Shown here piece after piece: positions 6,446-53,380 of a DNA stretch of 53,380 nt. Position 1 is the stretch's first letter; the number at the start of each line of letters is the position of its first letter. Origin of the DNA: a virus; the IMG/VR virus record IMGVR_UViG_3300045988_159805, one strand, 5' to 3'. The notes beneath the pieces are model-generated. The model was not told where the DNA came from. It saw only the letters and a program-made list of their open reading frames with translations, and searched no databases. Made by a program: the position numbers and the translations under genes.

Positions 6446-6474
6446 GCCTGCTCCGTGGAAAAGAGGTGGAAACA

Positions 6475-6693: not shown

Positions 6694-6760
6694 AACGAAA
6701 ACCGCATACCACACAAAAAGCCGACTGCACAGGGCACACACCCCGCAGCCGGCTTTTCTG

Positions 6761-7937: not shown

Positions 7938-7968
7938 AAAAAGTTACCTCCTAGTCGGTTTCTCTCGG

Positions 7969-8316: not shown

Positions 8317-8341
8317 GAAATTCTCCGTTTCTTGAAAATTG

Positions 8342-8560
8342 TTCCCACACTTCCCACACTTTTTGAAAACCGCCGAAATTGCGTCGCTTTTTGCAATTTT
8401 CAGACTTCCCACACCCATTCCCACACCTTTCCCACACCCCCACAGTGAGGGAGAATGTGGGAAACTGCGGGAAACACCTTTTTTCATTTTCCCACACAGG
8501 AAAAGCACGCAATTTCGGTATGTTTTTTAAGTTTCAGCGGCTTTGTGGGAAGTGTGGGAA
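8342..8560. repeat. iteron cluster (TTCCCACAC x6 direct, GTGGGAA x3 inverted): putative replication origin of the element
   Basis: Direct copies begin near 8342, 8351, 8406, 8419, 8430 and 8489. Inverted copies are near 8456, 8545 and 8553. The cluster lies immediately downstream of the DUF3987 gene. Confidence 0.55.
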
Positions 8561-8566
8561 GCTTTT

Positions 8567-10324: not shown

Positions 10325-10340
10325 CGGCTCTCACCGCCTC

Positions 10341-10607
10341 TCACAGACGCACCGGCACAGGCTGAATGCCGGCGGTGTGCTGTTCAGGCGGGACGGTGTG
10401 GACATCGTCCCCTACAGCCTCGCAGTTCAAAAACGCCGCAAATTTCTCTTGGTTAATGAGGTAGCGGCTGCCGATCTTCACCGTAAAGGCTGCACCCCGC
10501 CGACTTCTCGCCAGTTTCCGCACAGCGTAGGACGAAAGCCCGAACGCTTTTGCTGTGGTGTCAATGCTTTCCATGTGGGGAACGGTATATGTAAAATCTT
10601 TATTCAT
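10341..10607 (-). CDS. excisionase-family / MerR-like HTH DNA-binding protein
   Basis: ESIDTTAKAFGLSSYAVRKLARSRRGAAFTVKIGSRYLINQEKFAAFL is a typical excisionase-type HTH. Confidence 0.6.
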   Translation of the reverse strand: MNKDFTYTVPHMESIDTTAKAFGLSSYAVRKLARSRRGAAFTVKIGSRYLINQEKFAAFLNCEAVGDDVHTVPPEQHTAGIQPVPVRL

Positions 10608-10624
10608 TGATTCATTCCTTTCTC

Positions 10625-10889
10625 TTGAAAACCTGCTCCGGATATGCTATAATAGGAGCAGGCTATTTTTGAATAGTCTATTTGAAATTTAACGTGCGAA
10701 ATGCACGGGCGTGTGTCTGTTGGTAGCGGGTACACGCCTTTTTCTTTTGCCTTGGTGGGTGTCTTGTAGTGTGCATGGTTTTTCTCTCGCTTTCTGCCGG
10801 TCGTTCCGAAATAGTGGCAAACAGTGGTGTCTCTCTGTTCGCTCTTTGTTCGTTGGGTTTTGCTTTCCATTTTTGGAAAGCGTTTTTTT
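10625..10889 (+). ncRNA. candidate ~230-nt transcript antisense to the cro-like/xis-like leader
   Basis: TTGAAA(10625-10630)-17 nt-TATAAT(10648-10653). Canonical terminator GCTTTCCA-TTTT-TGGAAAGC plus T7 (10862-10889). No convincing ORF or RBS lies between them. Confidence 0.4.
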
Positions 10890-11067
10890 ATGCCTGCTCT
10901 GCTTTTAGCTGGTCGATGGCGGCAAGCACCTTTGCAGCGTCTGCCTCACTCAACGGCTTTCGCAGCTTTCGGCTGAAATTGCCGTCATTGATTCCCAGCT
11001 TTTCCGCAATCTGCCACAGGCAAACGCCGTTCTGCTTTGCAAGCTGTTTTACTTCTGTTCCGGTCAT
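10888..11067 (-). CDS. 59-aa Cro-like HTH regulator
   Basis: Not in the ORF track. RBS AGAGGTGA. Translation MTGTEVKQLAKQNGVCLWQIAEKLGINDGNFSRKLRKPLSEADAAKVLAAIDQLKAEQA. Confidence 0.6.
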   Translation of the reverse strand: MTGTEVKQLAKQNGVCLWQIAEKLGINDGNFSRKLRKPLSEADAAKVLAAIDQLKAEQA

Positions 11068-11097
11068 GGTATCACCTCTTTTCCTTGCAACAACAAT

Positions 11098-11192
11098 ATT
11101 TTAGCATAAATAAGTTGAAAAGTCAACCCATAGAATAAAATAAACCATGTAAATATTTTTTGGTTGACAACAACAACAGAAAATGATATAAT
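11098..11192. promoter_or_regulatory. back-to-back divergent promoters of the element's genetic switch
   Basis: Minus strand: TTGACT(11121-11126)-17-TAAAAT(11098-11103). Plus strand: TTGACA(11164-11169)-17-TATAAT(11187-11192). Confidence 0.6.
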
Positions 11193-11251
11193 GCAATAGA
11201 AGAAATAAAATTGCAAAATAGATGATTTTTGCAGATAAGGTGGTTTTTATT

Positions 11252-11974
11252 ATGGCATTGACGATTTTTGCAGAGCGAATGAAACAAGCGAGAACCGGAG
11301 CAGGCATGAAACAGAATGAACTTGCAAAAGCTGTTGGCGTTACCCCGGCGACGATCTCAGCCTATGAAAAAGCAAGCACAGACGGAAACGGAAAAAATCC
11401 GACACTGGAAAACGCACAGAAGATTGCAAAGGCTCTCGGTGTTTCTCTTGATTGGATTTGCGGAAACGGTCAGCCCACACCGGACGACGTGACAAGCTTT
11501 TCTTTGCAGGACTACTTGAAAAGTGTTGCGATTGCTTTGTATGAAATGAGTGTGAAAAGCGAATACGACAAAGAAAACGGACACGCAACAATATACATTG
11601 AGAACCCGGCAATTGCTCTTTTTGTTACAAAAGTGCAGCAGCTGCTTTTCGTGTATAGGAGCGGAACGCTTACGAGGGAAATGTACAATGATTGTATAAA
11701 AAGACTTGTCACCGGATTTAAGGGGCATTGTTTTGACTTCGGAAATCTTTTGACAGAGGGAGAGGCGTTGGACGCTGAAAGTTCTGTTGATGACATGGTC
11801 TCAAATTACCCCGAAGTTATAGGGACTAGCAGCATTGAAACAACACTTCTTGACCGCTATAGTTCAAACAATGTGGGTAGAGAAGTAAATTTATTGATAG
11901 AGCCGGAATTTTGGCAGCACTACGAAGAACAGGAGGCGAACAACCATGCCCAACATCACACAACGGAAGAATAA
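11252..11974 (+). CDS. XRE-family repressor with C-terminal domain
   Basis: Trimmed to MALTIFAERMKQARTGAGMKQNELAKAVGVTPATISAYEK (classic XRE HTH). Co-directional with, and overlapping, the integrase gene. Confidence 0.75.
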   Translation: MALTIFAERMKQARTGAGMKQNELAKAVGVTPATISAYEKASTDGNGKNPTLENAQKIAKALGVSLDWICGNGQPTPDDVTSFSLQDYLKSVAIALYEMSVKSEYDKENGHATIYIENPAIALFVTKVQQLLFVYRSGTLTREMYNDCIKRLVTGFKGHCFDFGNLLTEGEALDAESSVDDMVSNYPEVIGTSSIETTLLDRYSSNNVGREVNLLIEPEFWQHYEEQEANNHAQHHTTEE

Positions 11975-13217
11975 AGCCGGCGAGGTGATCTCCTACCGAA
12001 TTCGTGTCAGCCGCGGCTACGACAGCGAGGGAAACAAGCTGAAACCCCACGAAATGACGTGGAAACCCAGCCCCAGCATGACACCCCGACAGGCGGAAAA
12101 AGAGGCACAGCGGCAGGCGTTGCTATTTGAGGAGCAGTGCAAAAACGGGCTTGCTGGTGATGCAAGCCGCATCACCCTTGCGGAATTTGTCCCGGTATAT
12201 CTGGAGCAGAAACAGCAGACACTTTCGCCGATGGTTCTTGAAATGTATTGCCGGGTAATCGATCAAAAAATACTGCCTGCTCTGGGACATCACAAAATAC
12301 AAGATCTTCGCCCAGTCCATGTGCAAGCATTTATCCAGCAGCTGTGCAGCATAGACAAGCGAAACCGGGACGGCTCAGACAGCGAAGAAAAGCTTTCGGC
12401 TGCCAGTGTCAAGCGGTATCTTACAGTGTTGCAGTCTATGTTAAAACTTGCCGTAAAGCGGCGGATTATCAGCGAGAACCCAGCACGGGCGGAGCTGCTG
12501 GACATACCGAAAGCCACTGCCCCGAAGATCGATATTTTCACCAAACAAGAGGCAGCTGTCATGCTGGAGGCACTGGAGCAGGAGCCGCTGCAATTTCAAG
12601 TGCTGATACAGCTTGCTATTATTACCGGTGCAAGACGTGGGGAGCTGGTGGCACTGCGATTTTCTGATATTGACCGGAAAACTCGCAAAATCACCATTGA
12701 ACGGGCTGCGATCAAGCGAACAGGTCAGCCGCCGGAGATCAAACCGCCGAAAGATTATGAAGTACGGAGCGTAACGGTTACGCCGGCGTGTATTGAACTT
12801 GTGGACAAACTGGAGCAGGAGAAACGGGCACAGCGGCGGGCTCTGGGCAGCTACTGGAACGAGGGCGGCTGGCTGTTTACACAGGAAAACGGGGACATGA
12901 TGAACCCGCAAACGCCCACAAAGCAATTTTCAAAGTTTCTGAAACGGCATGACTTCCCGCACCGGAAATTTCACGCACTGCGGCACACTTCGGCGACGCT
13001 GCTTTTATACGGCGGTGTTAGTCTGAAGCAGGTGCAGGGACGGCTCGGACATGGGGATATCGAAACCACAAACAAGTACCTGCATTGCTTGCAGGAGGCA
13101 GACGAGGAGGCGGCTTGCGTGCTGCAAAGTATGCTGACAGTCAGCCGAAAGCCCAAACCGGAGCAGGCACAGACAAAGGCAGCGGCAGAGCCAAAGCAGG
13201 CGAAAGCCGGGGCATAA
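11946..13217 (+). CDS. int: tyrosine site-specific integrase
   Basis: GGAGG RBS. N-terminal arm-binding-like MPNITQRKNKAGEVISYRIRV. C-terminal HALRHTSATLLLYGGVSLKQVQGRLGHGDIETTNKYLH. Confidence 0.9.
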   Translation: MPNITQRKNKAGEVISYRIRVSRGYDSEGNKLKPHEMTWKPSPSMTPRQAEKEAQRQALLFEEQCKNGLAGDASRITLAEFVPVYLEQKQQTLSPMVLEMYCRVIDQKILPALGHHKIQDLRPVHVQAFIQQLCSIDKRNRDGSDSEEKLSAASVKRYLTVLQSMLKLAVKRRIISENPARAELLDIPKATAPKIDIFTKQEAAVMLEALEQEPLQFQVLIQLAIITGARRGELVALRFSDIDRKTRKITIERAAIKRTGQPPEIKPPKDYEVRSVTVTPACIELVDKLEQEKRAQRRALGSYWNEGGWLFTQENGDMMNPQTPTKQFSKFLKRHDFPHRKFHALRHTSATLLLYGGVSLKQVQGRLGHGDIETTNKYLHCLQEADEEAACVLQSMLTVSRKPKPEQAQTKAAAEPKQAKAGA

Positions 13218-13220
13218 CAA

Positions 13221-13267
13221 AAGCCGCCGCAGGGTGCATGATACACCTTGCAGCGGCTTTCTTTTTG
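13221..13267 (+). terminator. intrinsic terminator after the integrase gene
   Basis: Imperfect ~16-bp stem AAGCCGCCGCAGGGTG/CACCTTGCAGCGGCTT followed by TTTCTTTTT. Confidence 0.5.
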
Positions 13268-13397
13268 TCGGATTTTGTTGGACTTTGCAGGGACTTTTCG
13301 AGGGCTTAGTGTCCTGATAGTGCCCTAAGCGTATTTCCCACCCTAAAACCAAAAAGCACGCAACCCCGGAAACTTCCCGAAATTGCGTGCAAATTCC

Positions 13398-13442
13398 TGG
13401 AGCTGTTAACCAGATTCGAACTGGTGACCTCTTCCTTACCAA
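13398..13442. repeat. att copy 2: shared junction between the satellite-like element and the prophage
   Basis: 45/45 identical to 4112-4156 and 42353-42397. It carries the same post-core AAAG as copy 1, where the tRNA copy has AAGG. Confidence 0.85.
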
Positions 13443-13568: not shown

Positions 13569-14702
13569 CTATTTTTTATCCAATCCTAATAGTTTTCTAG
13601 TTGATTCTACATCGCTGTGAGCATATCGTTTCCGCAGCATTTGCAGATCAGCGTGCCCTAATACGTTTGCAACCGCAAAAAGATTTGCACCGCTGTTGAC
13701 CCACAGGGTAGCTCTTGTGTGTCGGAGTTCATGCGGTGTAAGCTTCGGGATATCTATCCCTTGTTCTGCATAAAATTCCTGCATATCACGCATGAATACA
13801 TTGTACCTTCTTTTCTGCCAGTTGCTTGGGGACTGTGGTTTTCCAGAATTATTTCCGAAAACATACTCACACTTGTGCGGACGAATCGACAATTTCTCAA
13901 TATCAGATTCTGTGATAGGAATGATACGTTCTCGAAAATCGTTTTTCAAATTTCCTGCAACAATTTCCACTTTTCCTGTGGCTGCATTTTTTACTTCTGC
14001 TACACCTCGCTGCACATGAAGTGTTAAAGCGCTGGAATCAATATCTTCCCACTTGATTCCAAGCAGCTCCGAACGGGTGATACCATACGACAACATCAAA
14101 ATGATTTCTAATCCGTATGGGTGCGTTTCTGCATAGCGTAAAACATAATCGCATTCTTCCGCTGTGTATGTGTGTTTTTCATGTTTCTTCACATTGCTTC
14201 GCAGACGGATATCATCACAGGGGTTTTTGTTGACAATATCGTTTTGTATCGCAGCGGCAAAAATTCGATGCAGCACCATTCTGTGGACTTTAAGGGTTTC
14301 CAAAGAATAAGCGTCCTGGTTTTGGTTAAAGTAGTTTTGAATGTCAATCTGCTTGATTCGGTTCATTCTTGCATTTTTGAAATATGGGATCAAATGCTTT
14401 TCAATTGTGTTTCTATAGTGCAGCTCATAGGTGCTGCCCTTAACCGTCCCTTTTAGAGACTCCAAAACCTTTTCAGCCCACACGGAAAAAGCAATGTCAT
14501 TTGACTGAGGTGTTTCTCCGGTGATGTCATACACAGCCTGATCTACTTTGAACTGTTCTGCTTTGGCTTTGGCAGCTTCCTTACTGATTTTACTGTAGAA
14601 TGATTTTCGGATTGGTCTGCCCATGGAATCACGTCCGACCGTGACTTTAACTTCATAAATGCCGTTTGCACGATTGGGCTTTTCCTTTTTCGGTCTGCCC
14701 AT
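13569..14702 (-). CDS. int: tyrosine site-specific integrase (prophage)
   Basis: HELRHTRATLWVNSGANLFAVANVLGHADLQMLRKRYAH. Sits at the prophage edge. Confidence 0.9.
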   Translation of the reverse strand: MGRPKKEKPNRANGIYEVKVTVGRDSMGRPIRKSFYSKISKEAAKAKAEQFKVDQAVYDITGETPQSNDIAFSVWAEKVLESLKGTVKGSTYELHYRNTIEKHLIPYFKNARMNRIKQIDIQNYFNQNQDAYSLETLKVHRMVLHRIFAAAIQNDIVNKNPCDDIRLRSNVKKHEKHTYTAEECDYVLRYAETHPYGLEIILMLSYGITRSELLGIKWEDIDSSALTLHVQRGVAEVKNAATGKVEIVAGNLKNDFRERIIPITESDIEKLSIRPHKCEYVFGNNSGKPQSPSNWQKRRYNVFMRDMQEFYAEQGIDIPKLTPHELRHTRATLWVNSGANLFAVANVLGHADLQMLRKRYAHSDVESTRKLLGLDKK

Positions 14703-42255: not shown

Positions 42256-42352
42256 GTACCGAAATTGTCGTACTAAGTGTCGTACTACTGTTTTTTCATA
42301 AAACCAAAAAGCACGCAGTCCCGGCATACCGCCGGAGCTACGTGCAAATTCT

Positions 42353-42428
<76 letters not shown>

Positions 42429-42640: not shown

Positions 42641-42676
42641 AAAAAAACGCCGCCGGGCGGTGATGCCCGATGGCGT
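42641..42676 (-). terminator. terminator after the VanY-like gene
   Basis: GC-rich hairpin ACGCC...GGCGT followed on the minus strand by T7. Confidence 0.5.
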
Positions 42677-42693
42677 TTCCTGGTTTATCCGAT

Positions 42694-43800
42694 TCATTCG
42701 CAGGTGACAATATATCCGCTGATGTTGTCGCCGGATGCGGTATAGGTCTTGCCGGGGATGGTCACATCCACATCGTTTGTGCCGCCGATGCCCACATAGA
42801 ATACCTTATACTGCTTTCCGTCCGCTGTGATCTCCAGCGGATTTGCCGGGGTGTAGCTGTGGATCTTGTCCACATACTCTTCCAGGCACAGCTTGTGTTC
42901 TGTCATGTAAACAGCGTGGGGAACGCCCACATAGCGGAAGGTATAGCTGCGGCTGTCCTCGCCGGTCTTTTCTTCCTTGCCGTCCGGATAGCGCACCACA
43001 AAGCCGTACTCTGCGGCGTGTTCAGCGATCCAGCTGTACTGCGGATATTTCTCCGCATTATAATAGTCCGAAGTGCCGTCTCCGAAGTTGATCTTCAGAT
43101 TAAAGCTTCTGCCGCTGTGATAGTCGGATGTGCCGCCTTTGAAGTCGGTGCTGCCGTCTGCATACCGTGCATCCTGGTCTGCCTTGTCCCGATAGCCGCT
43201 GAATACCTGCATTCCGCTCAGTCCGGTCTCCTTTTCAAATGCCGCCATCATCTCGTTCAGATGCTGGATCGTCTCAGCGTCCAGCTGGACTTCCATATCG
43301 CTGACGCTGTAGGAACTGTTCCGGTTCTCATAGACACTTTTGAGTTTCGGGTCGCCAGTGGGGAAATCGTAGGAGTGATCTTTGTTAATAAGGATCAGAT
43401 CGCCCTTGTTCACGCCCTTGGCAGCCAGTGTGATCTGCTTGCCGTCGGTCAGACTGCTTTCCTCTGCCTGCGTTGTCTTTGTGGTGTCCGTAGCCACATC
43501 CGGTGCGTCGGTCTGGGTATCCTTTTCGCTGTTTTCAACCTTTTCGGCAGAAGTAGTCGCTGTTGCCACCGGTGTGCTGCCGGACTCCTCCGGGGACTTC
43601 CGGCGCTGGCAGCTGTGGAAACACAGTGCGCCGATCAGCAGGACGATCAGCAGAAACGGTACGCCCACCGCAGCGATGCGGTCCAGCCGGAGCTTGCGTT
43701 TTCTGGCGTGGCTGCCTCCTTTTCTGGCTGCTTTTTTATCCACATCCGGTTTCGGGGATGGTTCTTTTGCATGACTGATCGGTTTTTTCGGTTCGCTCAT
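42694..43800 (-). CDS. VanY / M15-family D-alanyl-D-alanine carboxypeptidase-like protein, membrane-anchored
   Basis: TM helix VGVPFLLIVLLIGALCF. Motifs SGYRDKADQ, SDYHSGRSFN and YTFRYVGVPHA are VanY-type. Confidence 0.7.
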   Translation of the reverse strand: MSEPKKPISHAKEPSPKPDVDKKAARKGGSHARKRKLRLDRIAAVGVPFLLIVLLIGALCFHSCQRRKSPEESGSTPVATATTSAEKVENSEKDTQTDAPDVATDTTKTTQAEESSLTDGKQITLAAKGVNKGDLILINKDHSYDFPTGDPKLKSVYENRNSSYSVSDMEVQLDAETIQHLNEMMAAFEKETGLSGMQVFSGYRDKADQDARYADGSTDFKGGTSDYHSGRSFNLKINFGDGTSDYYNAEKYPQYSWIAEHAAEYGFVVRYPDGKEEKTGEDSRSYTFRYVGVPHAVYMTEHKLCLEEYVDKIHSYTPANPLEITADGKQYKVFYVGIGGTNDVDVTIPGKTYTASGDNISGYIVTCE

Positions 43801-44070
43801 GACAGATGTTCCTTTCTTTGCAGAATTGCCGCATCAGCGCCTGCTGTGCATTTTCTGCGCACAATAAGCCGGCGGTCTGTCCAAATCCGAAATCCATTCC
43901 GGAGCGGATGCGGCAGTGCTTTCATTATACCATATTCCCCGAAGATTTTCAAGTCAAATTTTGTCGTATCCGGAAAAGCGGTTTCCCGGCGCAGCGCAGG
44001 GGCGTGCCTTTCAGACACTCCGGCGGGAGAGCCGCAGCAGGGGAGTCGTTTTTTGCATCCGCATTTTCAC

Positions 44071-44099
44071 TTGACAAAACCAGGAAAGCGTGGTATACT
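44071..44099 (+). promoter_or_regulatory. promoter of tRNA-Leu
   Basis: TTGACA(44071-44076)-17-TATACT(44094-44099). Confidence 0.65.
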
Positions 44100-44129
44100 T
44101 AGTTGTACGTTCTTTCCCACAGATATTTT

Positions 44130-44212
44130 GCGGATGTGGTGAAATTGGCAGACACGATAGATTTAGGTTCTATTGCTCCGGCGTGCAGGTTCAAGTCCTG
44201 TCATCCGCACCA
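44130..44212 (+). tRNA. tRNA-Leu (anticodon TAG), long variable arm, CCA encoded
   Basis: Acceptor GCGGATG/CATCCGC. Anticodon stem ATAGA/TCTAT with loop TTTAGGT. Confidence 0.85.
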
Positions 44213-44217
44213 GAACA

Positions 44218-44267
44218 AAACGCTCAGAAATGACGCAGCTGCGTTGTTTCTGAGCGTTTCTTTTTTT
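44218..44267 (+). terminator. intrinsic terminator after tRNA-Leu
   Basis: Stem AAACGCTCAGAAA/TTTCTGAGCGTTT followed by a T-run. Confidence 0.75.
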
Positions 44268-44663
44268 GTGCCGGGGGCTGTCCTTTATTTGTCCTTTATG
44301 CAGGCAGTTTGTCCGGATTTGTTGAAATTAAGCAGAAAAAACGGAAAATTTTTTCTATAAAGCGTTCTGAATTAGGCGGCAAAGTATTGCTGTTTTATAC
44401 CGAGTTTTTCACATTCTTCATCTTGTCTTATATTTATGGAGCATATCCATAGCATACTGAGAGGACTCTTAAAAACCTAGTATTTCTCCTTTGTGTAATT
44501 CATTGTATATTCAAAGTATGATACTTCAGTTGTGCAGTCTTATGCAGTTAATTTATTTATAGTATATAACACATTATTTTAGTTTTACATTTGCTTTGAG
44601 CAGATTGCATAAATTTTAAGGTGACGATTCTACATAAGCTGTTAGAAAATGTAAATATATGTA

Positions 44664-44692
44664 TTGACATTTCTAGGGCAATGTGGTATACT
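44664..44692 (+). promoter_or_regulatory. promoter of the island operon
   Basis: TTGACA(44664-44669)-17-TGgTATACT(44684-44692). Confidence 0.65.
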
Positions 44693-44813
44693 TAATTTGA
44701 TAAATAAAGTTGGAATTATATTGGACTTTTGTATAAAGTGCATAAAATTAAAACTGTAATCGTTAGCTTGTTTATACTATTTGAATTAAAATAATGTGAG
44801 AGGAATGATTAAA

Positions 44814-47375
44814 ATGATAGTGTACAAAATAGCTGCAATTCCAGATATCACTCTAAGCAAATATCAGGCCTATGCAGAATCAGGCGTTGAGGGCATGATA
44901 AAAACACAACTGCAATTCATTCGAATGGTGCATAGAATTATTGCGTTGGACCGTATTCATGTACACTATATTTTTGATTATGATCCAGAAAAAAGTTTAG
45001 GCAATCGTTTGAGCATTTATATTGCGTTTTCAAAAGAAAATGACACCGCATCTGTCATTGAAGAAAAGCTAAAGAAGATTGTACTTTCATCAAATATTTC
45101 GAAGTACTTCTTCTTTCAGGAAGTCTCTGATGATTTAATTCCATCTAAAGAATACGTGTATCGGTCTGTTCTGTATAAAAAAGAGCGCTCTTTAGACGTA
45201 AATGTTGGAGAACAGACGCAAAAATTTTATGTTGTTCCAAATTGGGAAATTAACGAGGAAGCTCGTTTGTATAACTTGATTACATTAATGGCATCTCTGA
45301 ATGAGCGTTGTTGCTATTGCGTTGATTTTGGAGTTCCGCTTAATATCGTAGAAGATGTACATAAAAGTTTTGAAAAGCCTTTGAGCTTTTTGAGGAACTA
45401 TTCAACTCAAGATGGTCCTGCACTTAGTGATGCTAAAAAAAGTCAAAAAAATCGAAGAGATCCTAATGTTGATGAAGTTATAAAACAATATGAGGACTGG
45501 ATAAAAAAAGTTGATACTTCGTTAGTATATCGCTGTAGGATACAATCACTTTCGGACAGCAGTTCTACTAGTATAATCCTTTTGAATGCGGTTATAACGG
45601 AATCAATTGAAAGTGGAAATGCAGCTACAAAATTAGAAAAAGGAAGTTTTACGCCTTTCTCAAATTGGAATAGCTATCCAGAAGGGTATCATCTTGGAAA
45701 TGCACCAGTTTCTTTACAGGACTGGACAACTACATTTACAGTTGAAGAACTTTGTGCATTTACGTGCTTACCTGTTTTGTATGATGGAGAAACGGTTGAG
45801 ATACCAAAAGAAACCGCAATGGTGGCTGAAACTAGTGGCATCTATTTAGGCAATGACAATAATCTTCATGAGATAATGATCCCGGAAAAGATGTTAGTGA
45901 AACATATGTTCGTTTGCGGCGTGCCTGGATCAGGAAAAACCAACACAATGCTGCATTTGGCAAACAGCCTGTGGAAGAAAAAAATACCTTTTCTTGTTTT
46001 AGAGCCAGCTAAGAAAGAGTATCGGGAATTATCGTTATTTCAAATTCCGGAATTACTGATTTTTTCTCCTTCGGCAAATACAAATTTTCCGTTAGAAATC
46101 AATCCCTTTGAGTTTCCTAAGGGATTGACCTTGTCAGAACATATTGAAAGTTTGTGTAAAGTATTTGAAGGCGCTTTTCCTATGCCGTCGCCTTCTCCCA
46201 AAATACTGAGTACTTCTATTCAGGCTGTTTATGAAAAGCATGGATGGAGTTATAAAGATGTAAACACAGGTACTAAAGAATACCCTACATTATCTGAATT
46301 GTATAAGCAATTCGAAGAAGAAATGTCCAAGACATCATATGATGGGGAAATGAAGGGCAATGTGCAGGCAGTTCTTCAAGTGCGAATAGGAAGTCTGCTG
46401 GAACGTGAACGCAAAGAAATTTTTGATGTAAAAAAATCTGTGATTGACCCGGAAGAATGGCTCACAAAACCAATTATTATTGAGTTGGAGTCTTTAGGTG
46501 AGGGCCCTGCAAATTTCGTAACACTTTTATTGTGTACATTGATAAGAGAAACGTTAAAGGCAGATCCTTTGAAGGAAAAGGAAAAGAAGATACGTCACGT
46601 TATTTTTATCGAAGAAGCACATAATTTAATTGCTCAAAAGGCACAGGTCGATGCAGAAGATTCTAACCCCAAAATAGCGGCTACTGCATTTATTGTTAAA
46701 ATGCTTGCAGAAGTACGTGCATTAAGAGAAGGAATTATTATTGCAGATCAGCTGCCAACGGCTATGGCGCCGGAAGTTATAAAAAACACGAATATTAAAT
46801 TGGTCCATCGTTTAACATCGGGCGATGACAGAGAATTGGTTGGCAGCACAATGTCGGCTAGTCCGTTGCAAATGGAGAATATGGCTACATATCTCCCTGG
46901 ACAAGCGTTATTTAGCTACGAAAAGTTGTTAAAACCATTTGAAATGCGAGTTTGCACGGTAGAAGAACATGGAGAAAAAACTCCAAATGACAAAGAATTG
47001 TTTGAAATCATGCAGAAAAAACCTGGATTTAGCAACTTGCAGAAAAGAAGAGTCAATAATGCGTTTGATGCTTTGAAAAAAGAAACAGATCGATTATATA
47101 AAGAAGAAACAGATATGATTGAGGAACTGTTTCGAAGTGAAGAAAATAAAAGAATATCCAGGTCAGTTGCAAAGCCGTATTTAGAATCTTGTTCGAATAT
47201 TTTTGTTGAAATCATGAAAAAGCAAAATGAAATCGATATAGAATATCAAAAACTATTTAGTGAAATTGATTTCTTAGATCAAGGAATATTTACGGATTAT
47301 TATGTCGTAAATAGAAGTATTGGACAGAGATTTAAGAAGGCGTATGGTGCGTTTTGTTCTAGATTAAACGGCTAA
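44814..47375 (+). CDS. HerA/FtsK-superfamily (DUF87-like) ATPase with a large unassigned N-terminal domain
   Basis: Start chosen by AGAGGA spacing. Walker A FVCGVPGSGKTNT. Walker B HVIFIEEAHNL. Downstream GIIIADQLPTAMAPEVIKNTNIKLVHRL is typical of HerA-like ATPases. The first ~370 aa have no motif I recognise. Confidence 0.7.
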   Translation: MIVYKIAAIPDITLSKYQAYAESGVEGMIKTQLQFIRMVHRIIALDRIHVHYIFDYDPEKSLGNRLSIYIAFSKENDTASVIEEKLKKIVLSSNISKYFFFQEVSDDLIPSKEYVYRSVLYKKERSLDVNVGEQTQKFYVVPNWEINEEARLYNLITLMASLNERCCYCVDFGVPLNIVEDVHKSFEKPLSFLRNYSTQDGPALSDAKKSQKNRRDPNVDEVIKQYEDWIKKVDTSLVYRCRIQSLSDSSSTSIILLNAVITESIESGNAATKLEKGSFTPFSNWNSYPEGYHLGNAPVSLQDWTTTFTVEELCAFTCLPVLYDGETVEIPKETAMVAETSGIYLGNDNNLHEIMIPEKMLVKHMFVCGVPGSGKTNTMLHLANSLWKKKIPFLVLEPAKKEYRELSLFQIPELLIFSPSANTNFPLEINPFEFPKGLTLSEHIESLCKVFEGAFPMPSPSPKILSTSIQAVYEKHGWSYKDVNTGTKEYPTLSELYKQFEEEMSKTSYDGEMKGNVQAVLQVRIGSLLERERKEIFDVKKSVIDPEEWLTKPIIIELESLGEGPANFVTLLLCTLIRETLKADPLKEKEKKIRHVIFIEEAHNLIAQKAQVDAEDSNPKIAATAFIVKMLAEVRALREGIIIADQLPTAMAPEVIKNTNIKLVHRLTSGDDRELVGSTMSASPLQMENMATYLPGQALFSYEKLLKPFEMRVCTVEEHGEKTPNDKELFEIMQKKPGFSNLQKRRVNNAFDALKKETDRLYKEETDMIEELFRSEENKRISRSVAKPYLESCSNIFVEIMKKQNEIDIEYQKLFSEIDFLDQGIFTDYYVVNRSIGQRFKKAYGAFCSRLNG

Positions 47376-47394
47376 AGAGAAAGGAATGATAGAT

Positions 47395-47877
47395 ATGGCT
47401 GGAAATAAAAGCTTAGAAACCAGAAAAAACAAGGTGAGTGAAATCGGCAAAAATATTGAAAAAAAGTCAGAAAGACTTTCAGAATTGCAGGAGGCTAAAG
47501 AGGCTGCAAGAGAATGGAGAATGCAAATAGAAAACAATGAAAATTTAGACGAAGAAGAAAGAAAGCAGGCAAGTGAAGTCTCAAACGAAAGATATGAAGC
47601 AATTTCAAAAGAAGCCTCAGAAGTTTCTAGTGAGGTAGGAGAAGACTTAAAAGAATTAGAAGATCTTAGAAATGAAACAAATGAATCGCTGGAAGCAGCT
47701 CAAAATGCGAAAAGTTCTGAAGATGATCTGGTAAGAACTTGCTCTGAACATGGGATTATTGTTCCAAAATCTAAGAGCTTAGACAGCAATATAAGAGGAA
47801 ATGAAAATCTGTTAAATGAAATAATTGAAAAAATGGGAAATGCAGAAGATATTGCAACTAAATTGGGTACTTTGTGA
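47395..47877 (+). CDS. acidic coiled-coil protein
   Basis: Glu/Lys-rich heptad-like sequence. The start is 47386 or 47395. Confidence 0.55.
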   Translation: MAGNKSLETRKNKVSEIGKNIEKKSERLSELQEAKEAAREWRMQIENNENLDEEERKQASEVSNERYEAISKEASEVSSEVGEDLKELEDLRNETNESLEAAQNAKSSEDDLVRTCSEHGIIVPKSKSLDSNIRGNENLLNEIIEKMGNAEDIATKLGTL

Positions 47878-47895
47878 AATGAATCTTTTTCTGCA

Positions 47896-48558
47896 ATGAC
47901 GTTCACAGAGAGAATGTCTTCTATGTTAAACCCGGATGTTTTATCTGCTGCAATAAAAGAACAGCAAAGCGCAGAAGATACAGGTTCTTATGGACGTTTG
48001 AAAAGAGATCAGAACATATGGAATCCGGATGGAAAGATCTCATCTGACCAGAACTCGCACACTTTGGGGGAAAAGACATTTCAAAGAGCATATTCAGATA
48101 TAAAAGTTGCAAAAGGAAATGCGACTGAGGAAGCGGTTTGTTATTCCCTAAAGGATCAGTTCTCTTCAATTGAAACACAGAGAAAAATAGATCTGGAAAA
48201 AAACACCTATACCAAATCGGATATCATAGCAACCCATGCAAATCAAAATATTCAGATCGGGGATATCTCTATAAAAGAAGGAGAGTCTATGGGTGTTGAA
48301 GTTAAGTGCGGAGAAGCGGCGTATCTTTCATCTCAAATATCGCACATTGATAAGCAATTAAGTGGATTTGATGTTTATGAAAGACAAGACGAATCTGTAA
48401 AGTTTCACAAGGTCGTTATGGTAACAGCAGACTACTATCAAATGTCAGATTCTTCAAAGGGACATCTGAATGATGTTGTGAAAAGTCACAATGCGTGTAT
48501 TCATGTTCTTCCATTTTTTGCAAATGACATAACGCAGACGATGGCGAGAATGGAATAA
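47896..48558 (+). CDS. hypothetical protein, possible PD-(D/E)xK nuclease fold
   Basis: Candidate core ...KSDIIATH...(27 aa)...GVEVKCG (D...ExK). The RBS is weak and the start is uncertain. Confidence 0.45.
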   Translation: MTFTERMSSMLNPDVLSAAIKEQQSAEDTGSYGRLKRDQNIWNPDGKISSDQNSHTLGEKTFQRAYSDIKVAKGNATEEAVCYSLKDQFSSIETQRKIDLEKNTYTKSDIIATHANQNIQIGDISIKEGESMGVEVKCGEAAYLSSQISHIDKQLSGFDVYERQDESVKFHKVVMVTADYYQMSDSSKGHLNDVVKSHNACIHVLPFFANDITQTMARME

Positions 48559-48590
48559 TAAAAATAATCAATAAGGAGGCTTTTTTATTT

Positions 48591-50384
48591 ATGGGATTAT
48601 TAGATTTAGCAGGAAAAGCAATTGGTGGTGCGGTGAATTTCACAGCAAGTGTAGCAAAAGAAGCGTATGATGCCTCAGTGGAGGATAAAATCGCACAAGA
48701 AACAAGTACCTCTGTAGATTCAGTTACAAATTCAATTGTGCAAATGCGATCCAATTGGACGGCTGCTGCAAATGACGTGAAAAAAAGAAAAGCAGAGGAA
48801 CTTTATCAGGAAGGCTTAAAAAAAGCCACGCATCAAATAACTGAATTTATTGGAACGACAGGCGTCAGAACAAAAGCATTTAATCTATATTATAGATTCT
48901 TAACCAATAATGCAGAACTTAGCGAATTAGCAAAATATGTGGATGGAATTTATAATGCTGTCCTGGACAAAGAAGAATCGTCTTACTTAAAAAAAGCACA
49001 GGAAAGTTCAGAATATAAAACTATATTTAACGAAGTACAAAAATCTTGGGTCAACGAAATAAAAAATGTGATTACGGAAAATCTAAAGGGAAACGACGTA
49101 TTATGCCACACTGACAAACAAGACAAAAGAATACCTTTTGTGGGAATATCAATGTTCTTAATAGATGGTTTCTATCTTTTCTTATTGCTGAAAAAAATCA
49201 CAAACGATTTTAAGTACGATGATATGATGGAAATAGTCTCCACATATTGCAAACGAAATCTGTATCTACTGAATGCGCTTTCAGAAAATGAATATGGAGA
49301 TTTTAATATTAACATAGGAGATAAACTTCTGGATGATGGACACACCTATGCTGCTATGGCAAAAGATGCAGTTATAGAAGCAAGACAGCATTTATCTGAC
49401 AATGAAACCGGATTTTTTGAAGGAATGAAAAAGTACTTGATTCCTTCACTTATAGAAAACACGAGTGTAAACCTTTGGCACTATGCAATGCAAAAACCGT
49501 TTGATCAAAAAAAGTTTAACGATGCAGTCGAAAATCGAAATTTCTTTACAGCAACGGCAGGAAATGATTTTGAAGTTGTTTTGGCGGAACTATATGTAAA
49601 AAACCAATTGGGTGGAAGTGAGCTTGTTCTTCAAAACCTAGATGAGATTTTGAAAGAGGCATCAGTTTCTAATCCCGGATATGCAAGAAGCCTATGCTCT
49701 TTTCTTGCATGGATGGAATGCTATGATCTTGAGTATGAAGTTTTGAAACGAACTGTGGCAAATAAAATCCAACTGTCAGAAGAAATGCAAAAGCGTTTAT
49801 CGTTCCTGGCTGACGGCGGAAAAACAGCGGCAATTAAAATATATCATGTGGATGATCCATCTGCATTTTGCTTTGACACACATTCACTTGAATGGGGTAG
49901 TGCTGAATTTGAAATGCTGTTTCGTAAGCTAAAAGCAAGCAACACAAAATTGGATTATGCACTTGTTATAAAAGGGTGGCATAAACCTTTTCCCATTCAG
50001 TATGGAAAGAAATTTCATATTGAAGCGTTAGAGCGAGAATTTGAAAATCTTTTGTCAGATTTTAGCGGAGAGGTTCTTTTAGAAAAAAAATCTGCCCATG
50101 CTCTGAATGTAAACAACATGAATTATGATACGTCATATGTTTTTCATTTTACTTCTGAACGAAATCGTGGTGTAAATGTTCTGTTTGAATGCGAGAAATT
50201 CGGACGTAATTTACAACTGAATATTCTAGTTACATTTTTACCAGACAGTGATATGAGTTATGATGATATGTTGCAGTATGCACTGTCAGCAAAAGACAGC
50301 GTTTATGTAAAAAGTTTCCTGGAATCAATTTTGCAGGCAATTGATTCTTCATTGACCGCAAATTCTGCATCGATTTATGACTAA
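48591..50384 (+). CDS. 597-aa protein of unknown function, paralogue of 51152-52978
   Basis: AAGGAGG RBS. Alignable by eye with the last gene, e.g. FLAWMECYDLEYEVLKR versus ALAWMELYDIELMVLKK, and FHFTSERNRGVNVLFECEKFGRNLQLNILV versus FHFISERNRCISMLFHAEKFGKNLNITILT. Confidence 0.65.
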   Translation: MGLLDLAGKAIGGAVNFTASVAKEAYDASVEDKIAQETSTSVDSVTNSIVQMRSNWTAAANDVKKRKAEELYQEGLKKATHQITEFIGTTGVRTKAFNLYYRFLTNNAELSELAKYVDGIYNAVLDKEESSYLKKAQESSEYKTIFNEVQKSWVNEIKNVITENLKGNDVLCHTDKQDKRIPFVGISMFLIDGFYLFLLLKKITNDFKYDDMMEIVSTYCKRNLYLLNALSENEYGDFNINIGDKLLDDGHTYAAMAKDAVIEARQHLSDNETGFFEGMKKYLIPSLIENTSVNLWHYAMQKPFDQKKFNDAVENRNFFTATAGNDFEVVLAELYVKNQLGGSELVLQNLDEILKEASVSNPGYARSLCSFLAWMECYDLEYEVLKRTVANKIQLSEEMQKRLSFLADGGKTAAIKIYHVDDPSAFCFDTHSLEWGSAEFEMLFRKLKASNTKLDYALVIKGWHKPFPIQYGKKFHIEALEREFENLLSDFSGEVLLEKKSAHALNVNNMNYDTSYVFHFTSERNRGVNVLFECEKFGRNLQLNILVTFLPDSDMSYDDMLQYALSAKDSVYVKSFLESILQAIDSSLTANSASIYD

Positions 50385-50402
50385 TAAGAAGGTGATGTTA
50401 AA

Positions 50403-51134
50403 ATGAATGAAGAAAGAACACTGACAAAAGAACAGCAGCAGGCATTTGAAGAGATGCTTCAAGAAAAAACCTATTGCGGTGATGCGTTTTCAGCTTTTCG
50501 CTTGTTCACTAATTATTTGAAGGGAACAAATGGGTTCCGAAAAGATCCAGACAAGGCGTTTGAATATTTGAAAATCTCATCAGACTTAGGCTATCCACAC
50601 GCAATTAACCTTCTGAAATTGTTGTATAGTGGAAATGACTTGTATGGCTTAAAAATTGAACGTGATTTAAGAAAACGAATAGAGTGCCTTGAAAAATTAA
50701 GTGTTGCAGATCAACTCTTTGATTTTTCGACTGTGACGGAAGAAGAGCGAAATGAATTTTACCAGATGGAGTGGAATGCTCTGGCTGAACTAGGGCGGTT
50801 ATATATACTTGATTCTACTTTATATGAGGAAGATAACTATAAAGGTTATTGCCTTTCATTGTATGTAGCAGGACAGAAAGGAACACCAGAGTCGTTGTGT
50901 ATGCTGGGCTACTATTTTGATTGTTACAGACCTCCACAGTATGTACCATCGAATACCTTATTAAAAAAACGTGGGAATCTGGGAACTGCATTATATTACT
51001 ATGAGTGCGCAATCAATACAGATAATTCTAAGTATGCTAATCTTGCTTTAGAGCAGTATAATCGATTGGCAGAACAAATTAATGTGAGCGAAGGCAGAAC
51101 CGAAGAAAATATGATTCCATATTACAGAAGATAA
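50403..51134 (+). CDS. Sel1-like (SLR/TPR-type) repeat protein
   Basis: GFRKDPDKAFEYLKISSDLGYPHAINLLKLLYSG and further degenerate SLR units. Confidence 0.55.
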   Translation: MNEERTLTKEQQQAFEEMLQEKTYCGDAFSAFRLFTNYLKGTNGFRKDPDKAFEYLKISSDLGYPHAINLLKLLYSGNDLYGLKIERDLRKRIECLEKLSVADQLFDFSTVTEEERNEFYQMEWNALAELGRLYILDSTLYEEDNYKGYCLSLYVAGQKGTPESLCMLGYYFDCYRPPQYVPSNTLLKKRGNLGTALYYYECAINTDNSKYANLALEQYNRLAEQINVSEGRTEENMIPYYRR

Positions 51135-51151
51135 AGAAAAGAGGAAAAGAA

Positions 51152-52978
51152 ATGCTGGCATTTATTTTAATTGTAGGTGTATTAATTGCAATATACTTTA
51201 TTGTGAATAGTCAAAAAAGAAAAAAAGAGGAAGAACAGCGCCGATTAGAAAATGAACGAATAGCAAGAGAACAGCAAGAACAGGAAGCAAAACGTCTTGA
51301 GGCAGAGCGCATAGCAAAAGAAAAAAAGGAATTTGCCGAGGCAAAACATAAAGAATATGCGGATGTTCTAAGTGAACTTTATGATATGGGAATGAAAGAT
51401 GAAAATACATTTATCTCAACGGATGAACCGGCGTATAAAAAATTTATTTCTTGTCGGGAAAGTGCAATGCAACAGAAGGAAACAATGCAAATTTGGGGTG
51501 AGGAATACAAAAAATTTATTACAACGATCGACGATGATATAAAAAGTGAGATTTCAAGTATCGCTGCCCATTATCAAAGAATGCTTTTATCAGTACGCAT
51601 TGAATGGATCACTAGATATTTGAAAATCGTAAAGCTTGTTGTAAACACAAACGATTATGATGATACAATTCAAAAATTAAAAGAAACAGCAAAAACACTA
51701 AATCTTTTTTTGGAAAGTACATATTATATCGATCAACCATTCAATGACGAGCGTAATAGCTATGAATACGGCGTTTTTCATTTTTTGGAAGATAGTAGCG
51801 ATGAGGAAGTACGTCCAGAAGATTTATCAGCAGAAATATTAAGTTCAGATATGGATAAAGCTGAAGAACATTTCTCACAATTATATGAAATCGGAAAGGA
51901 AAAAGGTGTCAATTTCCAGATATACAAATCTTTGGCTGAATATATAACAGACGTTGACTATAGAAATAGTGCTATAGCGATGTGGTGCTTTGCTGCTAAT
52001 AAACCATTTGATGTTTCCAAATTTGAAAAGGCTTGTAAAATTTCTTCGTGGTATATAAGCTATGATGAAATTCAGTCCTTAGAGGTAATGATTGTACGGA
52101 TATACAACTGGAAATCTATTGGCGGCGCAAATGTTGTCAAGGAATATAGTCGAGATATTTTGAATTGGGTAGAGGAAACTGCGCAGTATTTCTCAGACCA
52201 AAAAACTGGGGAAAAGTATGGTTCATTAGTTTTCTACCATTTTGTATCTGCACTTGCATGGATGGAATTGTATGATATTGAATTGATGGTTTTGAAAAAA
52301 CTTGTAGATCTAAAAGTACAGCTCTGGGAAGATGCACAGGAACGTTTGAAATTTTTATCTTCTGGTGGTACAGCAAACGTACAGATTTATACGCCTGTAG
52401 AAAATGTCTTTTCGTTTGATACAAGTGCTGCTGAATGGAAGGATAATGAGATTGATGTATTCTTTAGAAAGATAAAAATGAAAAACATTCCATTGGAATA
52501 TTCTCTCGTTCGGAAAAAATGGACAAAAACATATCCGTTACAAACTGGACAGGAATATAGTGCAGATGCTCTGTATGCAGAATTTAGCAAGATGGTAGAC
52601 GATTTTGATGGAGAAGTAACGCTGACTCGAGAAGATGCAGTAGCTTTGAACACAAAAAATGTAAGATATTCTGATGCAATGATCTTTCATTTTATTTCCG
52701 AGAGAAATCGTTGTATTTCAATGCTGTTTCACGCAGAGAAATTTGGAAAAAATCTAAACATTACAATATTGACACTATTCACACCAGAAAAGAATGTTCC
52801 GGTTGAAGATCTTGAACGTTATGCCATTGCGATTAAAAATAATGTATACGCAGAGAGTTTTCAGGAATCAATTTTGGAATCTTTAGATAGGATTTTGAAA
52901 GTACAAACAGAAGCATATGAAGATACAACAACTACAAATGAAAATGCAGAAGTTGATTTCAGTGGATTTTTCGATTAA
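51152..52978 (+). CDS. 608-aa membrane-anchored coiled-coil protein, paralogue of 48591-50384
   Basis: N-terminal TM helix MLAFILIVGVLIAIYFIV, then an EEQRRLENERIAREQQEQEAKRLEAERIAKEKKE coiled coil. The C-terminal ~350 aa are homologous to the fourth gene. Confidence 0.65.
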   Translation: MLAFILIVGVLIAIYFIVNSQKRKKEEEQRRLENERIAREQQEQEAKRLEAERIAKEKKEFAEAKHKEYADVLSELYDMGMKDENTFISTDEPAYKKFISCRESAMQQKETMQIWGEEYKKFITTIDDDIKSEISSIAAHYQRMLLSVRIEWITRYLKIVKLVVNTNDYDDTIQKLKETAKTLNLFLESTYYIDQPFNDERNSYEYGVFHFLEDSSDEEVRPEDLSAEILSSDMDKAEEHFSQLYEIGKEKGVNFQIYKSLAEYITDVDYRNSAIAMWCFAANKPFDVSKFEKACKISSWYISYDEIQSLEVMIVRIYNWKSIGGANVVKEYSRDILNWVEETAQYFSDQKTGEKYGSLVFYHFVSALAWMELYDIELMVLKKLVDLKVQLWEDAQERLKFLSSGGTANVQIYTPVENVFSFDTSAAEWKDNEIDVFFRKIKMKNIPLEYSLVRKKWTKTYPLQTGQEYSADALYAEFSKMVDDFDGEVTLTREDAVALNTKNVRYSDAMIFHFISERNRCISMLFHAEKFGKNLNITILTLFTPEKNVPVEDLERYAIAIKNNVYAESFQESILESLDRILKVQTEAYEDTTTTNENAEVDFSGFFD

Positions 52979-53053
52979 AGCCGATGTATAACACATAAAA
53001 TCGCTCTAAAATACTGGCTATAGTCGCCATAAAACAACGATACACATTAAATC

Positions 53054-53083
53054 ATGAGCAGGAGAAAATCCTGCTCATTTTTT
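53054..53083 (+). terminator. intrinsic terminator of the island operon
   Basis: Stem ATGAGCAGGA/TCCTGCTCAT followed by T5. Confidence 0.75.
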
Positions 53084-53227: not shown

Positions 53228-53380
53228 ATGAAAATGAGAAAGGTAATTTCAACCGTACTGGCAGGTGTGCTGGCATTGTCCGCACTTCCCATTTCTGCCA
53301 TGAGCGCCGGCGCTGAGGGAGCATATGCGCCGGGCGATGTGGATATGGATGGTGTTATCACCGGGCATGATGCAGCAGTG
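53228..53380 (+). CDS. 5' part of secreted dockerin-repeat protein (runs off window end), paralogue of the 1-153 gene
   Basis: AAAGGAG RBS. Translation MKMRKVISTVLAGVLALSALPISAMSAGAEGAYAPGDVDMDGVITGHDAAV. Confidence 0.7.
   Translation, partial: MKMRKVISTVLAGVLALSALPISAMSAGAEGAYAPGDVDMDGVITGHDAAV

Follow-up and report, generated by a model that had tools for sequence, protein, structure and literature searches.

A strain-variable six-gene island with a VirB4/HerA-class ATPase and a predicted nuclease is a new variant of a large family of probable conflict systems

The IMG/VR virus record IMGVR_UViG_3300045988_159805 is a stretch of 53,380 nucleotides (nt), which we refer to as the window; all coordinates given below are positions in this whole stretch. 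Near its right end, at 44273..53081 on the plus strand, it contains an AT-rich accessory island of ~8.8 kb with six genes (g1–g6). A preliminary description made from the sequence alone had proposed it as a defence or conflict island of an undescribed type. We found that the system belongs to a large unnamed family of probable conflict systems organized around a VirB4/HerA-class ATPase and that the operon of the window is a new variant of this family. The island very probably is a conflict system with a swappable effector. For the operon in the window we favor an intracellular defence in which the ATPase would gate a predicted nuclease, a mechanism suggested by analogy to which we assign a probability of roughly 0.4. 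Of the earlier proposal the conflict genes and the nuclease-like partner were thus retained; defence is however not the sole well-supported reading, as export of a toxin is a serious rival.

Using the terminator of the neighboring tRNA-Leu gene to scan metagenome contigs we obtained seven contigs of the same species. In the metagenome contigs L093 and L097, whose flanks are 98–99% identical to the window, the island is absent and a GC-rich spacer of 93 nt joins position 44272 to 53081. The island is carried by contigs L080, L094, L095, L096, L098 and L099. Because empty sites exist in the same species, 44273–53081 represents a discrete presence/absence island that is polymorphic within one species. 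Its GC content lies at 0.33–0.38 (~0.35), versus ~0.46–0.55 upstream. The compositional break behind the tRNA-Leu terminator and a terminator-like hairpin at the other end, both pointed out previously, are confirmed, and the empty sites sharpen the boundaries. Horizontal acquisition of a strain-variable, AT-rich operon is likewise borne out by the island-free contigs. At the island ends we found neither att (attachment) sites nor direct repeats or target duplications, inside the island there was no integrase or recombinase gene and no repeat of the oriT (origin of transfer) type, and no nucleotide matches to plasmids or phages were obtained.

Open reading frame (ORF) calling recovered six ORFs on the same strand with intergenic gaps of 10, 18, 32, 18 and 17 nt, forming one tightly packed operon in agreement with the 10–32 nt reported before. 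A promoter-like site, TTGACA-17-TATACT with an extended -10 TG (44664..44692, plus strand), is present where a promoter had been proposed. It matches the sigma-70-like consensus at 11 of 12 positions as a motif match only, and the total count of promoter-like sites across the region is not above shuffle expectation. An intrinsic-terminator-like hairpin with a T-run, a consensus match only, is located on the plus strand at 53054..53078, just inside the right island boundary. All genes of the operon discussed in the following are encoded on the plus strand.

The g1 ATPase has more than 1700 homologues at E≤0.001. The best 120 of them are nearly all of full length (~850–880 aa) and mostly stem from gut and rumen metagenomes, the few named ones belonging to Lachnospiraceae, Oscillospiraceae, Eubacterium and Olsenella. 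ORFs were called and neighboring genes clustered in 74 genome loci and several metagenome loci. The neighbor counts cover 71 de-duplicated loci with a full-length ATPase, and the recurrent neighbor families of 79 loci were scanned with Pfam. A small helical protein of ~160 aa adjoins the ATPase in 50 of the 71 loci, or in 56 when unclustered neighbors of 140–200 aa are included. A protein of the c1 family, to which g4 and g6 belong, is encoded on the ATPase strand in 34 loci, and effectors of the c2/c36 family are likewise found near the ATPase in 34. Other proteins encoded in its vicinity are FtsK/SpoIIIE-like ATPases (20/71), Sel1 proteins (17/71) and Lgt-like membrane proteins (12/71).

Within the clade of the window (ATPase identity >50%) the gene order is ATPase, c3 protein (the family of g2), effector, accessory genes and c1 protein. 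L006 and L080 show the same arrangement as the window, to the extent of those contigs. Three further loci (L107–L109) are colinear with it and encode the ATPase, a c3 protein, an HExxH peptidase with a small c12 protein, a g4-type protein, a Sel1 protein and a g6-type protein. Due to this colinearity we regard the nuclease on the one hand and the peptidase with c12 on the other as alternative fillings of one slot; c12 genes behind HExxH effectors are also found in relatives. The constant part consists of the ATPase and the ~160-aa helical partner, and in the clade of the window c1 is constant as well. The Sel1 protein and the second c1 paralogue are accessory, and the gene behind g2 is an exchangeable effector slot. 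The six-gene composition, described previously as one system, is not the conserved unit: the core is the ATPase with the helical protein, plus c1 within the clade.

The surroundings of the relatives indicate that the module moves between contexts. In L001, L107 and L108 an element which splits feoB and encodes a serine recombinase and a tyrosine integrase carries the system as cargo, with FeoB_C/Gate on one side and, in L001, FeoB_N on the other. In four distinct settings the module follows an rve transposase, in L004 it adjoins a prophage and an MmeI restriction-modification gene, and elsewhere it lies between housekeeping genes. Some plasmids also carry the system, e.g. a hypothetical-gene trio on a Priestia plasmid. 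In viral contigs the family is rare (5–6 loci in 2.9 million), which argues against a phage gene set. Strain-level presence and absence, foreign composition and mobile contexts together fit accessory conflict genes.

The first gene of the operon (g1, 44814..47375) encodes a cytoplasmic ATPase of 853 aa. Its probable start is the ATG at 44814, which is preceded by the Shine-Dalgarno sequence GAGAGGAA. The Walker A motif GVPGSGKT with K375 (45918..45941) and the Walker B motif IFIEEAH with E600/E601 (46602..46622) are invariant in alignments of 25 and 56 homologues. The same alignments show invariant ADQ (644–646) and KLVHRL (662–667) signatures, so that the HerA/FtsK motifs recognized by eye before are fully supported, and good conservation of the N-terminal 360 residues as well. 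The only Pfam match of g1 is DUF87/HerA (PF01935; 1.4e-10, 42.1 bits versus a cut-off of 23.2); no match was obtained to Pfam AAA_10 or CagE_TrbE_VirB. Its best PADLOC match is mad8 (2.7e-16, 58 bits), covering the ATPase domain only, and the HerA models of PADLOC reached at most 38 bits. Among the NCBIfam models CedD scored 70 bits (2e-19), far under its cut-off of 600, and HerA_antiphage 18.7 bits against a cut-off of 800. A g1-family profile compared with all PDB sequences gave nothing at E≤0.01, HerA and VirB4 included; at E≤10 the best match was an unnamed “DNA helicase” (0.13). None of 81 g1-family members contains a transmembrane segment.

The N-domain of g1 had been called unrecognizable. 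An AlphaFold2 model of residues 1–364 was nevertheless confident, with a predicted local distance difference test score (pLDDT) of 84.7 and a predicted template modelling score of 0.80. In a Foldseek search its significant matches were limited to seven TrwK/VirB4 chains of the R388 type IV secretion system (T4SS), with E-values of 2e-4 to 6.5e-4 and probabilities of 0.98–1.0, but TM-scores of just 0.33–0.39. EccE3 was not among the top 50 matches. Judged from this model, g1 has the architecture of a VirB4-like protein and a motor of the HerA/DUF87 kind: a predicted VirB4-like N-domain (residues 1 to ~360) is followed by a DUF87/HerA-class P-loop domain (~360–715) and a C-terminal helical tail. 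VirB4/TrwK shows the same two-part architecture, with an N-terminal domain of ~360 aa and a C-terminal ATPase of the FtsK/HerA superfamily. With the HerA family g1 shares the central P-loop domain including Walker A, Walker B and the sensor Q, whereas its N-domain gives no sign of a HAS-barrel. By analogy with VirB4 systems a partnership of g1 with small bitopic membrane proteins seems plausible.

A VirB4-like N-domain would also be expected if g1 were the VirB4 motor of an integrative conjugative or mobilizable element and the other genes divergent parts of a mating channel, i.e. if the operon were a remnant or cargo of a conjugative T4SS. The feoB element of L001 and L107 with its serine recombinase and integrase and a TraG/VirD4-like gene lying 5 kb away on the opposite strand in L001 would be in line with such an origin, and conjugation was named as one option for a similar ATPase, EccE3-HerA, by Bell et al. 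(PMC11090510). With the exception of the TraG-like gene in L001, however, no relaxase, coupling protein or VirB3/VirB6/VirB8/TcpC-like protein was found among the Pfam-scanned recurrent neighbors or in the annotation of the loci, and other T4SS genes were not among these neighbor families either. The lack of a match to AAA_10 or CagE_TrbE_VirB and an island free of recombinase genes, oriT-type repeats and att repeats argue in the same direction, and the operons carry toxins and nucleases instead. We therefore consider a conjugative role most improbable.

The second gene (g2, 47386..47877) encodes a 163-aa protein of family c3, whose description as an acidic coiled coil proved correct (isoelectric point 4.63, 24% D+E). 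It has no Pfam family match. An assignment of the small helical proteins to WXG100 is unsupported, since none of 51 such proteins of the loci gave a WXG100 match.

The effector slot of the window is filled by g3 (47896..48558), a protein of 220 aa and a predicted nuclease of the PD-(D/E)xK type (E78, D109, E135-x-K137, Q154). The D...ExK core that had been suspected in this protein is invariant in its family: in 27 aligned homologues D109, E135, K137, G139, Y143, H150 and Q154 do not vary and K73, G74, E78 and T106 are near-invariant. The resulting pattern “KGxxxE ... TKPD ... ExK ... Q” is the classical PD-(D/E)xK signature, and the fold is predicted from this motif. We found 55 homologues of g3 among 1.8 billion representative proteins. 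g3 had no Pfam match and no PADLOC or NCBIfam match at E≤1, ten of its homologues were also without a Pfam match, a g3-family profile retrieved nothing meaningful from the PDB sequences, and HHalign showed no relation to the c2 toxin family.

g3 is a stand-alone predicted nuclease domain without a conserved N-terminal trafficking handle, and no ORF for an immunity protein fits into the 32 nt between g3 and g4. In three other operon types g3-like nucleases are encoded directly downstream of g1-family ATPases (g1-family model 1e-69 to 1e-88); one of these types additionally contains a WYL regulator and a dynamin-like GTPase. Some g3 homologues fuse the nuclease domain to an HExxH domain and helical N-regions. 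In P0142, P0144, P0151 and P0156 the g3-type domain is fused to an HExxH domain of the kind seen in the effector slot elsewhere, and in L081 a g3-HExxH fusion protein is again located just behind a DUF87 ATPase.

The remaining genes encode two c1 proteins with a Sel1 protein between them. g4 (48591..50384) is a soluble-type c1 member of 597 aa with an MGLLD N-terminus, a helical N-part and the conserved C-terminal domain of ~330 aa. g6 (51152..52978; 608 aa) is membrane-anchored, with a transmembrane helix at residues 1–19 followed by a KRKK stretch and a coiled coil. The paralogy of g4 and g6 (36% identity over 336 aa, E 2e-69) and the N-terminal anchor of g6 had both been recognized earlier and were confirmed. 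According to the positive-inside rule the bulk of g6 is predicted to be cytoplasmic. In the c1 family as a whole the N-part is variable and mostly consists of one to two N-terminal transmembrane helices and a coiled coil, the g4 type representing a soluble “MGLxD” form. One member (L042:943-2700) has leucine-rich repeats of the BspA type (LRR_5, 6.7e-40) in place of the helical N-region, which hints at the N-part being a variable recognition module. The conserved C-terminal domain of ~330 aa matches no known family. Searches with the single g4 sequence or with a profile of 34 sequences returned the same 11 close proteins, and HHalign detected no relation of c1 to other neighbor clusters. The AlphaFold2 model of g4, based on a 12-sequence alignment, is moderate (pLDDT 76) and gave no significant Foldseek match in the PDB and viral libraries; the similarity of its C-terminal alpha/beta domain to SRPBCC/START folds (E 0.05–0.1) is not significant and a weak lead, not evidence. 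In PADLOC and NCBIfam g4 had no match at E≤1 and g6 chance-level matches only.

g5 (50403..51134) is a repeat protein of 243 aa of the Sel1/TPR-like type. Its own Pfam Sel1 match of 28.3 bits falls under the cut-off of 30.7 bits and no PADLOC or NCBIfam match at E≤1 was found, but it is homologous to strongly Sel1-positive neighbor proteins in 16 loci, so that the Sel1 assignment made before stands. The pair of a g4-type c1 and a Sel1 protein recurs in L006, L007, L011 and L107–L109. Reading the sequences by eye we noticed that many c1 C-termini, including that of g6 (52940–52978), consist of an acidic or low-complexity linker and a hydrophobic tail (GFFD, IFS, PVF, PIF). This tail might serve as a peptide on which the Sel1 protein or the ATPase docks.

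In some relatives c1 is linked to a second membrane protein. In L001, L008, L012–L015, L019, L021 and L022 the gene immediately upstream of c1 is Lgt-like (Pfam LGT 3.8e-32), and its presence correlates with a c1 protein in which a lipobox-like [LIV][SA][SGA]C motif separates two transmembrane helices. The motif occurs in 9 of 13 c1 proteins with an Lgt-like neighbor versus 0 of 24 without one, which suggests a private lipidation of c1 by the putative Lgt-like enzyme in these relatives.

Such a correlation would also be compatible with a function in the membrane or envelope outside of any conflict, in which the ATPase extracts, inserts or remodels c1 at the expense of ATP and nuclease and peptidase are passengers. 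VirB4 is known to dislocate pilin. The short hydrophobic c1 tails and those loci that lack an enzyme altogether would agree with this, as L007, L025 and L074 encode just the ATPase, the small helical protein, c1 and Sel1. However, accessory conflict genes typically show the polymorphism within a species, the AT-rich foreign composition and the mobile contexts found here, and the slot repeatedly recruits toxins together with immunity genes. A function of this kind is thus highly unlikely in our view.

For the operon in the window we favor an intracellular defence that would proceed as follows: g6, with g4 and g5, would tether the ATPase hexamer to the inner face of the membrane, where a complex of ATPase and g2 would hold g3 inactive. 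Incoming foreign DNA engaged by the HerA/FtsK-type motor, or another trigger or infection signal, would then lead to an ATP-driven deployment of the g3 nuclease and result in restriction or abortive infection, in analogy to the mode of action of HerA-DUF4297, HerA-Sir2 and HerA-NurA. An effector gated inside the cell is preferred over an exported one because g3 has neither an immunity gene nor a trafficking handle. Defence is further preferred because g3-like nucleases are always joined to the ATPase in the three other operon types, because relatives come with a WYL regulator and with modules of the TerY-P type, and because the operon encodes no membrane protein of a channel type and c1 is predicted to lie mostly in the cytoplasm. 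The position of the strain-variable island beside a tRNA gene and a hot spot of prophage integration, the invariant Walker motifs, the PADLOC HerA matches and the PD-(D/E)xK signature also fit, as do the effector swap in a colinear operon, the sensor-like c1 protein with leucine-rich repeats, the mobile contexts and the MmeI restriction-modification neighbor.

Distant relatives, whose ATPase is ~40% identical, have larger operons than the window. Their c2 and c36 effectors have a coiled coil of ~150 aa at the N-terminus in common (HHalign probability 98%) and differ in their C-terminal domains, which include Endonuclease_NS_2 (7.5e-28), Gln_amidase (Gln deamidase, 3e-14), Colicin-DNase/WHH, ADPrib_exo_Tox (ADP-ribosyltransferase) and peptidases. 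The operons also encode ClpB-like AAA+, FHA, Ser/Thr-kinase, Ter-type ATP-grasp, HAD, radical-SAM and DUF2752 proteins as well as Lgt-like membrane proteins. In L027, L050 and L077 vWA, PP2C and kinase genes are found alongside, which corresponds to the TerY-P pattern. L050 from the cultured Butyrivibrio sp. AC2005 is an operon of ~18 genes encoding a SpoVK-like AAA+ protein, two kinases, vWA, PP2C, Zn_peptidase_2, ATP-grasp and HAD proteins, the ATPase, a toxin and adaptor, an FtsK-like ATPase, a second vWA and a Sel1 protein. The relatives of type C (L039, L041, L045, L047, L049 and L059) combine the ATPase, a coiled-coil toxin and an FtsK-like ATPase in one operon and terminate in a small transmembrane protein, two unknown proteins and a radical-SAM activase-like enzyme (Fer4_12, 5e-27).

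Several of these observations weigh against an intracellular defence. Exported-type polymorphic toxins fill the effector slot of the distant relatives, which points to export. They are usually followed by small variable ORFs, 2 of 10 of which, when tested, were YezG-like immunity proteins above the Pfam cut-off (1.5e-15 and 1.6e-7), and L077 contains tandem toxin-adaptor cassettes. Lgt-like and other membrane proteins are recurrent in relatives, L007 as a close relative has no enzymatic effector, and the one protein that the g1 N-domain matches significantly in structure, VirB4, is an ATPase of a secretion system. In the preliminary description, consistent embedding of homologues in T4SS or type VII secretion system (T7SS) loci had been named as a reason to abandon defence. 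Such contexts were found in part, namely as toxins, immunity genes and EssC-like FtsK ATPases in distant relatives.

Taken as evidence for toxin export, the same data lead to a model in which a VirB4-like ATPase on a membrane-anchored c1 ring, with g2 as adaptor, exports g3 to kill competitors. This would resemble the EssC, Lap partners and LXG toxins of T7SSb and represent a new polymorphic-toxin route in gut Clostridia. By parsimony the motor that serves the toxins of the c2/c36 relatives, with their conserved coiled coil, variable toxin domains and YezG-like immunity, would do the same job in the window. Both the ATPase with the VirB4-like N-domain and the FtsK/EssC-like ATPases in 20 of the 71 loci belong to families of secretion motors. 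Operons of type B contain T6SS-like (type VI secretion system) FHA, Ser/Thr kinase and ClpB-like genes, and membrane parts are present in the form of the c1 transmembrane helices, the Lgt-like protein and DUF2752. Toxins with a restriction endonuclease fold are moreover common in polymorphic toxin systems (PMC3482391). On the other hand g3 has neither an immunity gene nor an N-terminal trafficking domain, a polytopic channel protein is missing and most of c1 is predicted to lie in the cytoplasm. Unlike EssC, 20 of 21 FtsK/SpoIIIE-like ATPases of the relatives are without transmembrane segments, the small helical proteins gave no match to WXG100, and the type B operons contain no obvious membrane protein. 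We regard export of g3 as a serious possibility, only a little less likely than the defence mechanism. Somewhat unlikely is the more general notion that the ATPase family constitutes a new protein-export route of Gram-positive gut anaerobes, separate from T4SS and T7SS, with the window as a minimal nuclease exporter.

No experimental or dedicated computational description of the system was found in the papers searched, and the paper on DO-GTPase systems makes no mention of the family. PADLOC, NCBIfam and Pfam returned just generic ATPase matches plus the weak Sel1 match, so the view that no described system has this composition was upheld. The mad8 match might have indicated MADS, whose mad operon comprises eight genes including one for a methyltransferase, but is confined to the generic P-loop domain, and the other mad genes and the methyltransferase are absent from the island. 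The Dnd “HerA-FtsK capture” systems were rejected as a description of the family.

Among defence systems, Gao_Her/Nezha (Sir2-HerA, DUF4297-HerA) and HerA-NurA likewise pair a hexameric DUF87/HerA ATPase with an adjoining nuclease-type effector and occur as cargo of accessory islands. DUF4297 is a nuclease of the PD-(D/E)xK type, as is predicted for g3. Gao_Her requires an adjacent Sir2 or DUF4297 gene, however, and g2–g6 have no PADLOC or Pfam match to either; g3 is not DUF4297, Sir2 or NurA. In contrast to these HerA pairs the operon of the window adds a coiled-coil partner, a membrane-anchored c1, a Sel1 protein and a slot that also takes peptidases and polymorphic toxins.

With the LXG systems of T7SSb (e.g. 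YeeF-YezG) the distant relatives share a helical handle with a variable toxin, a small helical partner, downstream immunity genes (YezG-like twice), an FtsK-family ATPase and FHA/kinase regulators. They differ in having no LXG/WXG100 matches and no EsaA, EssA or EssB, and their FtsK-like ATPase lacks the transmembrane and FHA domains that EssC has in addition to three FtsK domains. The defining ATPase here is VirB4/HerA-like, and the operon of the window is without T7SS parts. A polymorphic toxin system would be expected to show handles and immunity genes as well; the distant relatives have the handle and partly immunity, whereas g3 of the window has no handle and no downstream immunity gene. 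An apparatus of “type VII/Esx-like” kind linked to TerY-P is reportedly found in the work of Anantharaman et al. from 2012.

The closest published descriptions are those of Bell et al. (2024), who noted in passing EccE3-HerA and EssC-like cassettes as add-ons to McrBC-type systems (PMC11090510). In the former, attached to Type III-A CoCoNuT/TerY-P loci, the ATPase domain of “EccE3-HerA” resembles that of VirB4 and a small helical protein is its partner; the latter (EssC-like/WXG100) encode a D-ExK nuclease with a coiled coil and a small acidic protein resembling a DNA mimic (PMC11090510). The N-domain of the CoCoNuT-associated ATPases was described as EccE3-like, not VirB4, and TerY-P-type modules are treated as defence-linked in the literature (PMC11090510). 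Mobile T7SS-like ATPases of the YueA type with the middle domain alone active were reported by Zhang et al. (2012; PMC3482391). Compared by description only, the operon of the window and the EccE3-HerA/CoCoNuT cassettes have the same type of ATPase, a small helical partner and the theme of a D-ExK nuclease in common, and the distant g1 relatives share the EssC-like ATPase without transmembrane segments and the vWA/PP2C/kinase neighbors. The operon of the window differs from these cassettes by having c1 and Sel1 proteins and no vWA/TerY-P, McrBC or EssC-like gene.

The island is bordered on its left by the tRNA-Leu(tag) gene (44130–44212) with a terminator-like hairpin behind it (44218–44259). 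An Rfam scan of the sequence reported this and a second tRNA and nothing else. The latter, a tRNA-Thr (42353–42428), is the doubly occupied phage integration hot spot that had been proposed: a 57-nt att core is present in three copies (4100–4156, 13386–13442 and 42341–42397), overlapping the 3’ end of the tRNA-Thr, and delimits two tandem elements. An element of ~9.3 kb (4157–13442) with a phage-type DNA helicase is followed by a complete siphovirus-like prophage of ~29 kb (13443–42340) with integrase (13569–14702), terminase, portal, capsid, tape measure and endolysin. Some other strains are without one or both of the tRNA-Thr elements and keep the island, which is therefore not part of the prophage.

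Between the two tRNA genes a plus-strand ORF of 490 aa (42670–44142) runs antisense to a VanY-like gene (42694–43800, minus strand) and into the tRNA-Leu; as the DNA is GC-rich, this antisense ORF is almost certainly spurious. The gene that follows the island on its right (53229–53380) encodes at its start a signal peptide along with a repeat of the dockerin type (DVDMDGVITGHDA). The presence of dockerin genes points to a Ruminococcus-like gut bacterium bearing a cellulosome as the host.

The family is abundant in Bacillota of the human and animal gut and the rumen, where many loci lie in variable islands, and it is absent from PADLOC, the one defence catalogue compared. Three protein families emerge as new from the analysis, namely c1, that of the small helical adaptor and that of the predicted nuclease g3, and the VirB4-like model provides a first, predicted structural handle on the N-domain of the g1 family. 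The question of function is testable with natural strains of the same species with and without the island and with the predicted catalytic residues K375 of g1 and D109/E135/K137 of g3. Colinear operons with swapped effectors offer natural controls, and the operon of Butyrivibrio sp. AC2005 is a possible experimental entry point. If the system acts in defence, it would add a new class to the anti-phage systems, one that is membrane-associated, driven by a HerA/VirB4 ATPase and equipped with plug-in effectors. If it acts in export, it would be a new route of toxin delivery that shapes strain competition in the gut and would amount to a new type of secretion system.

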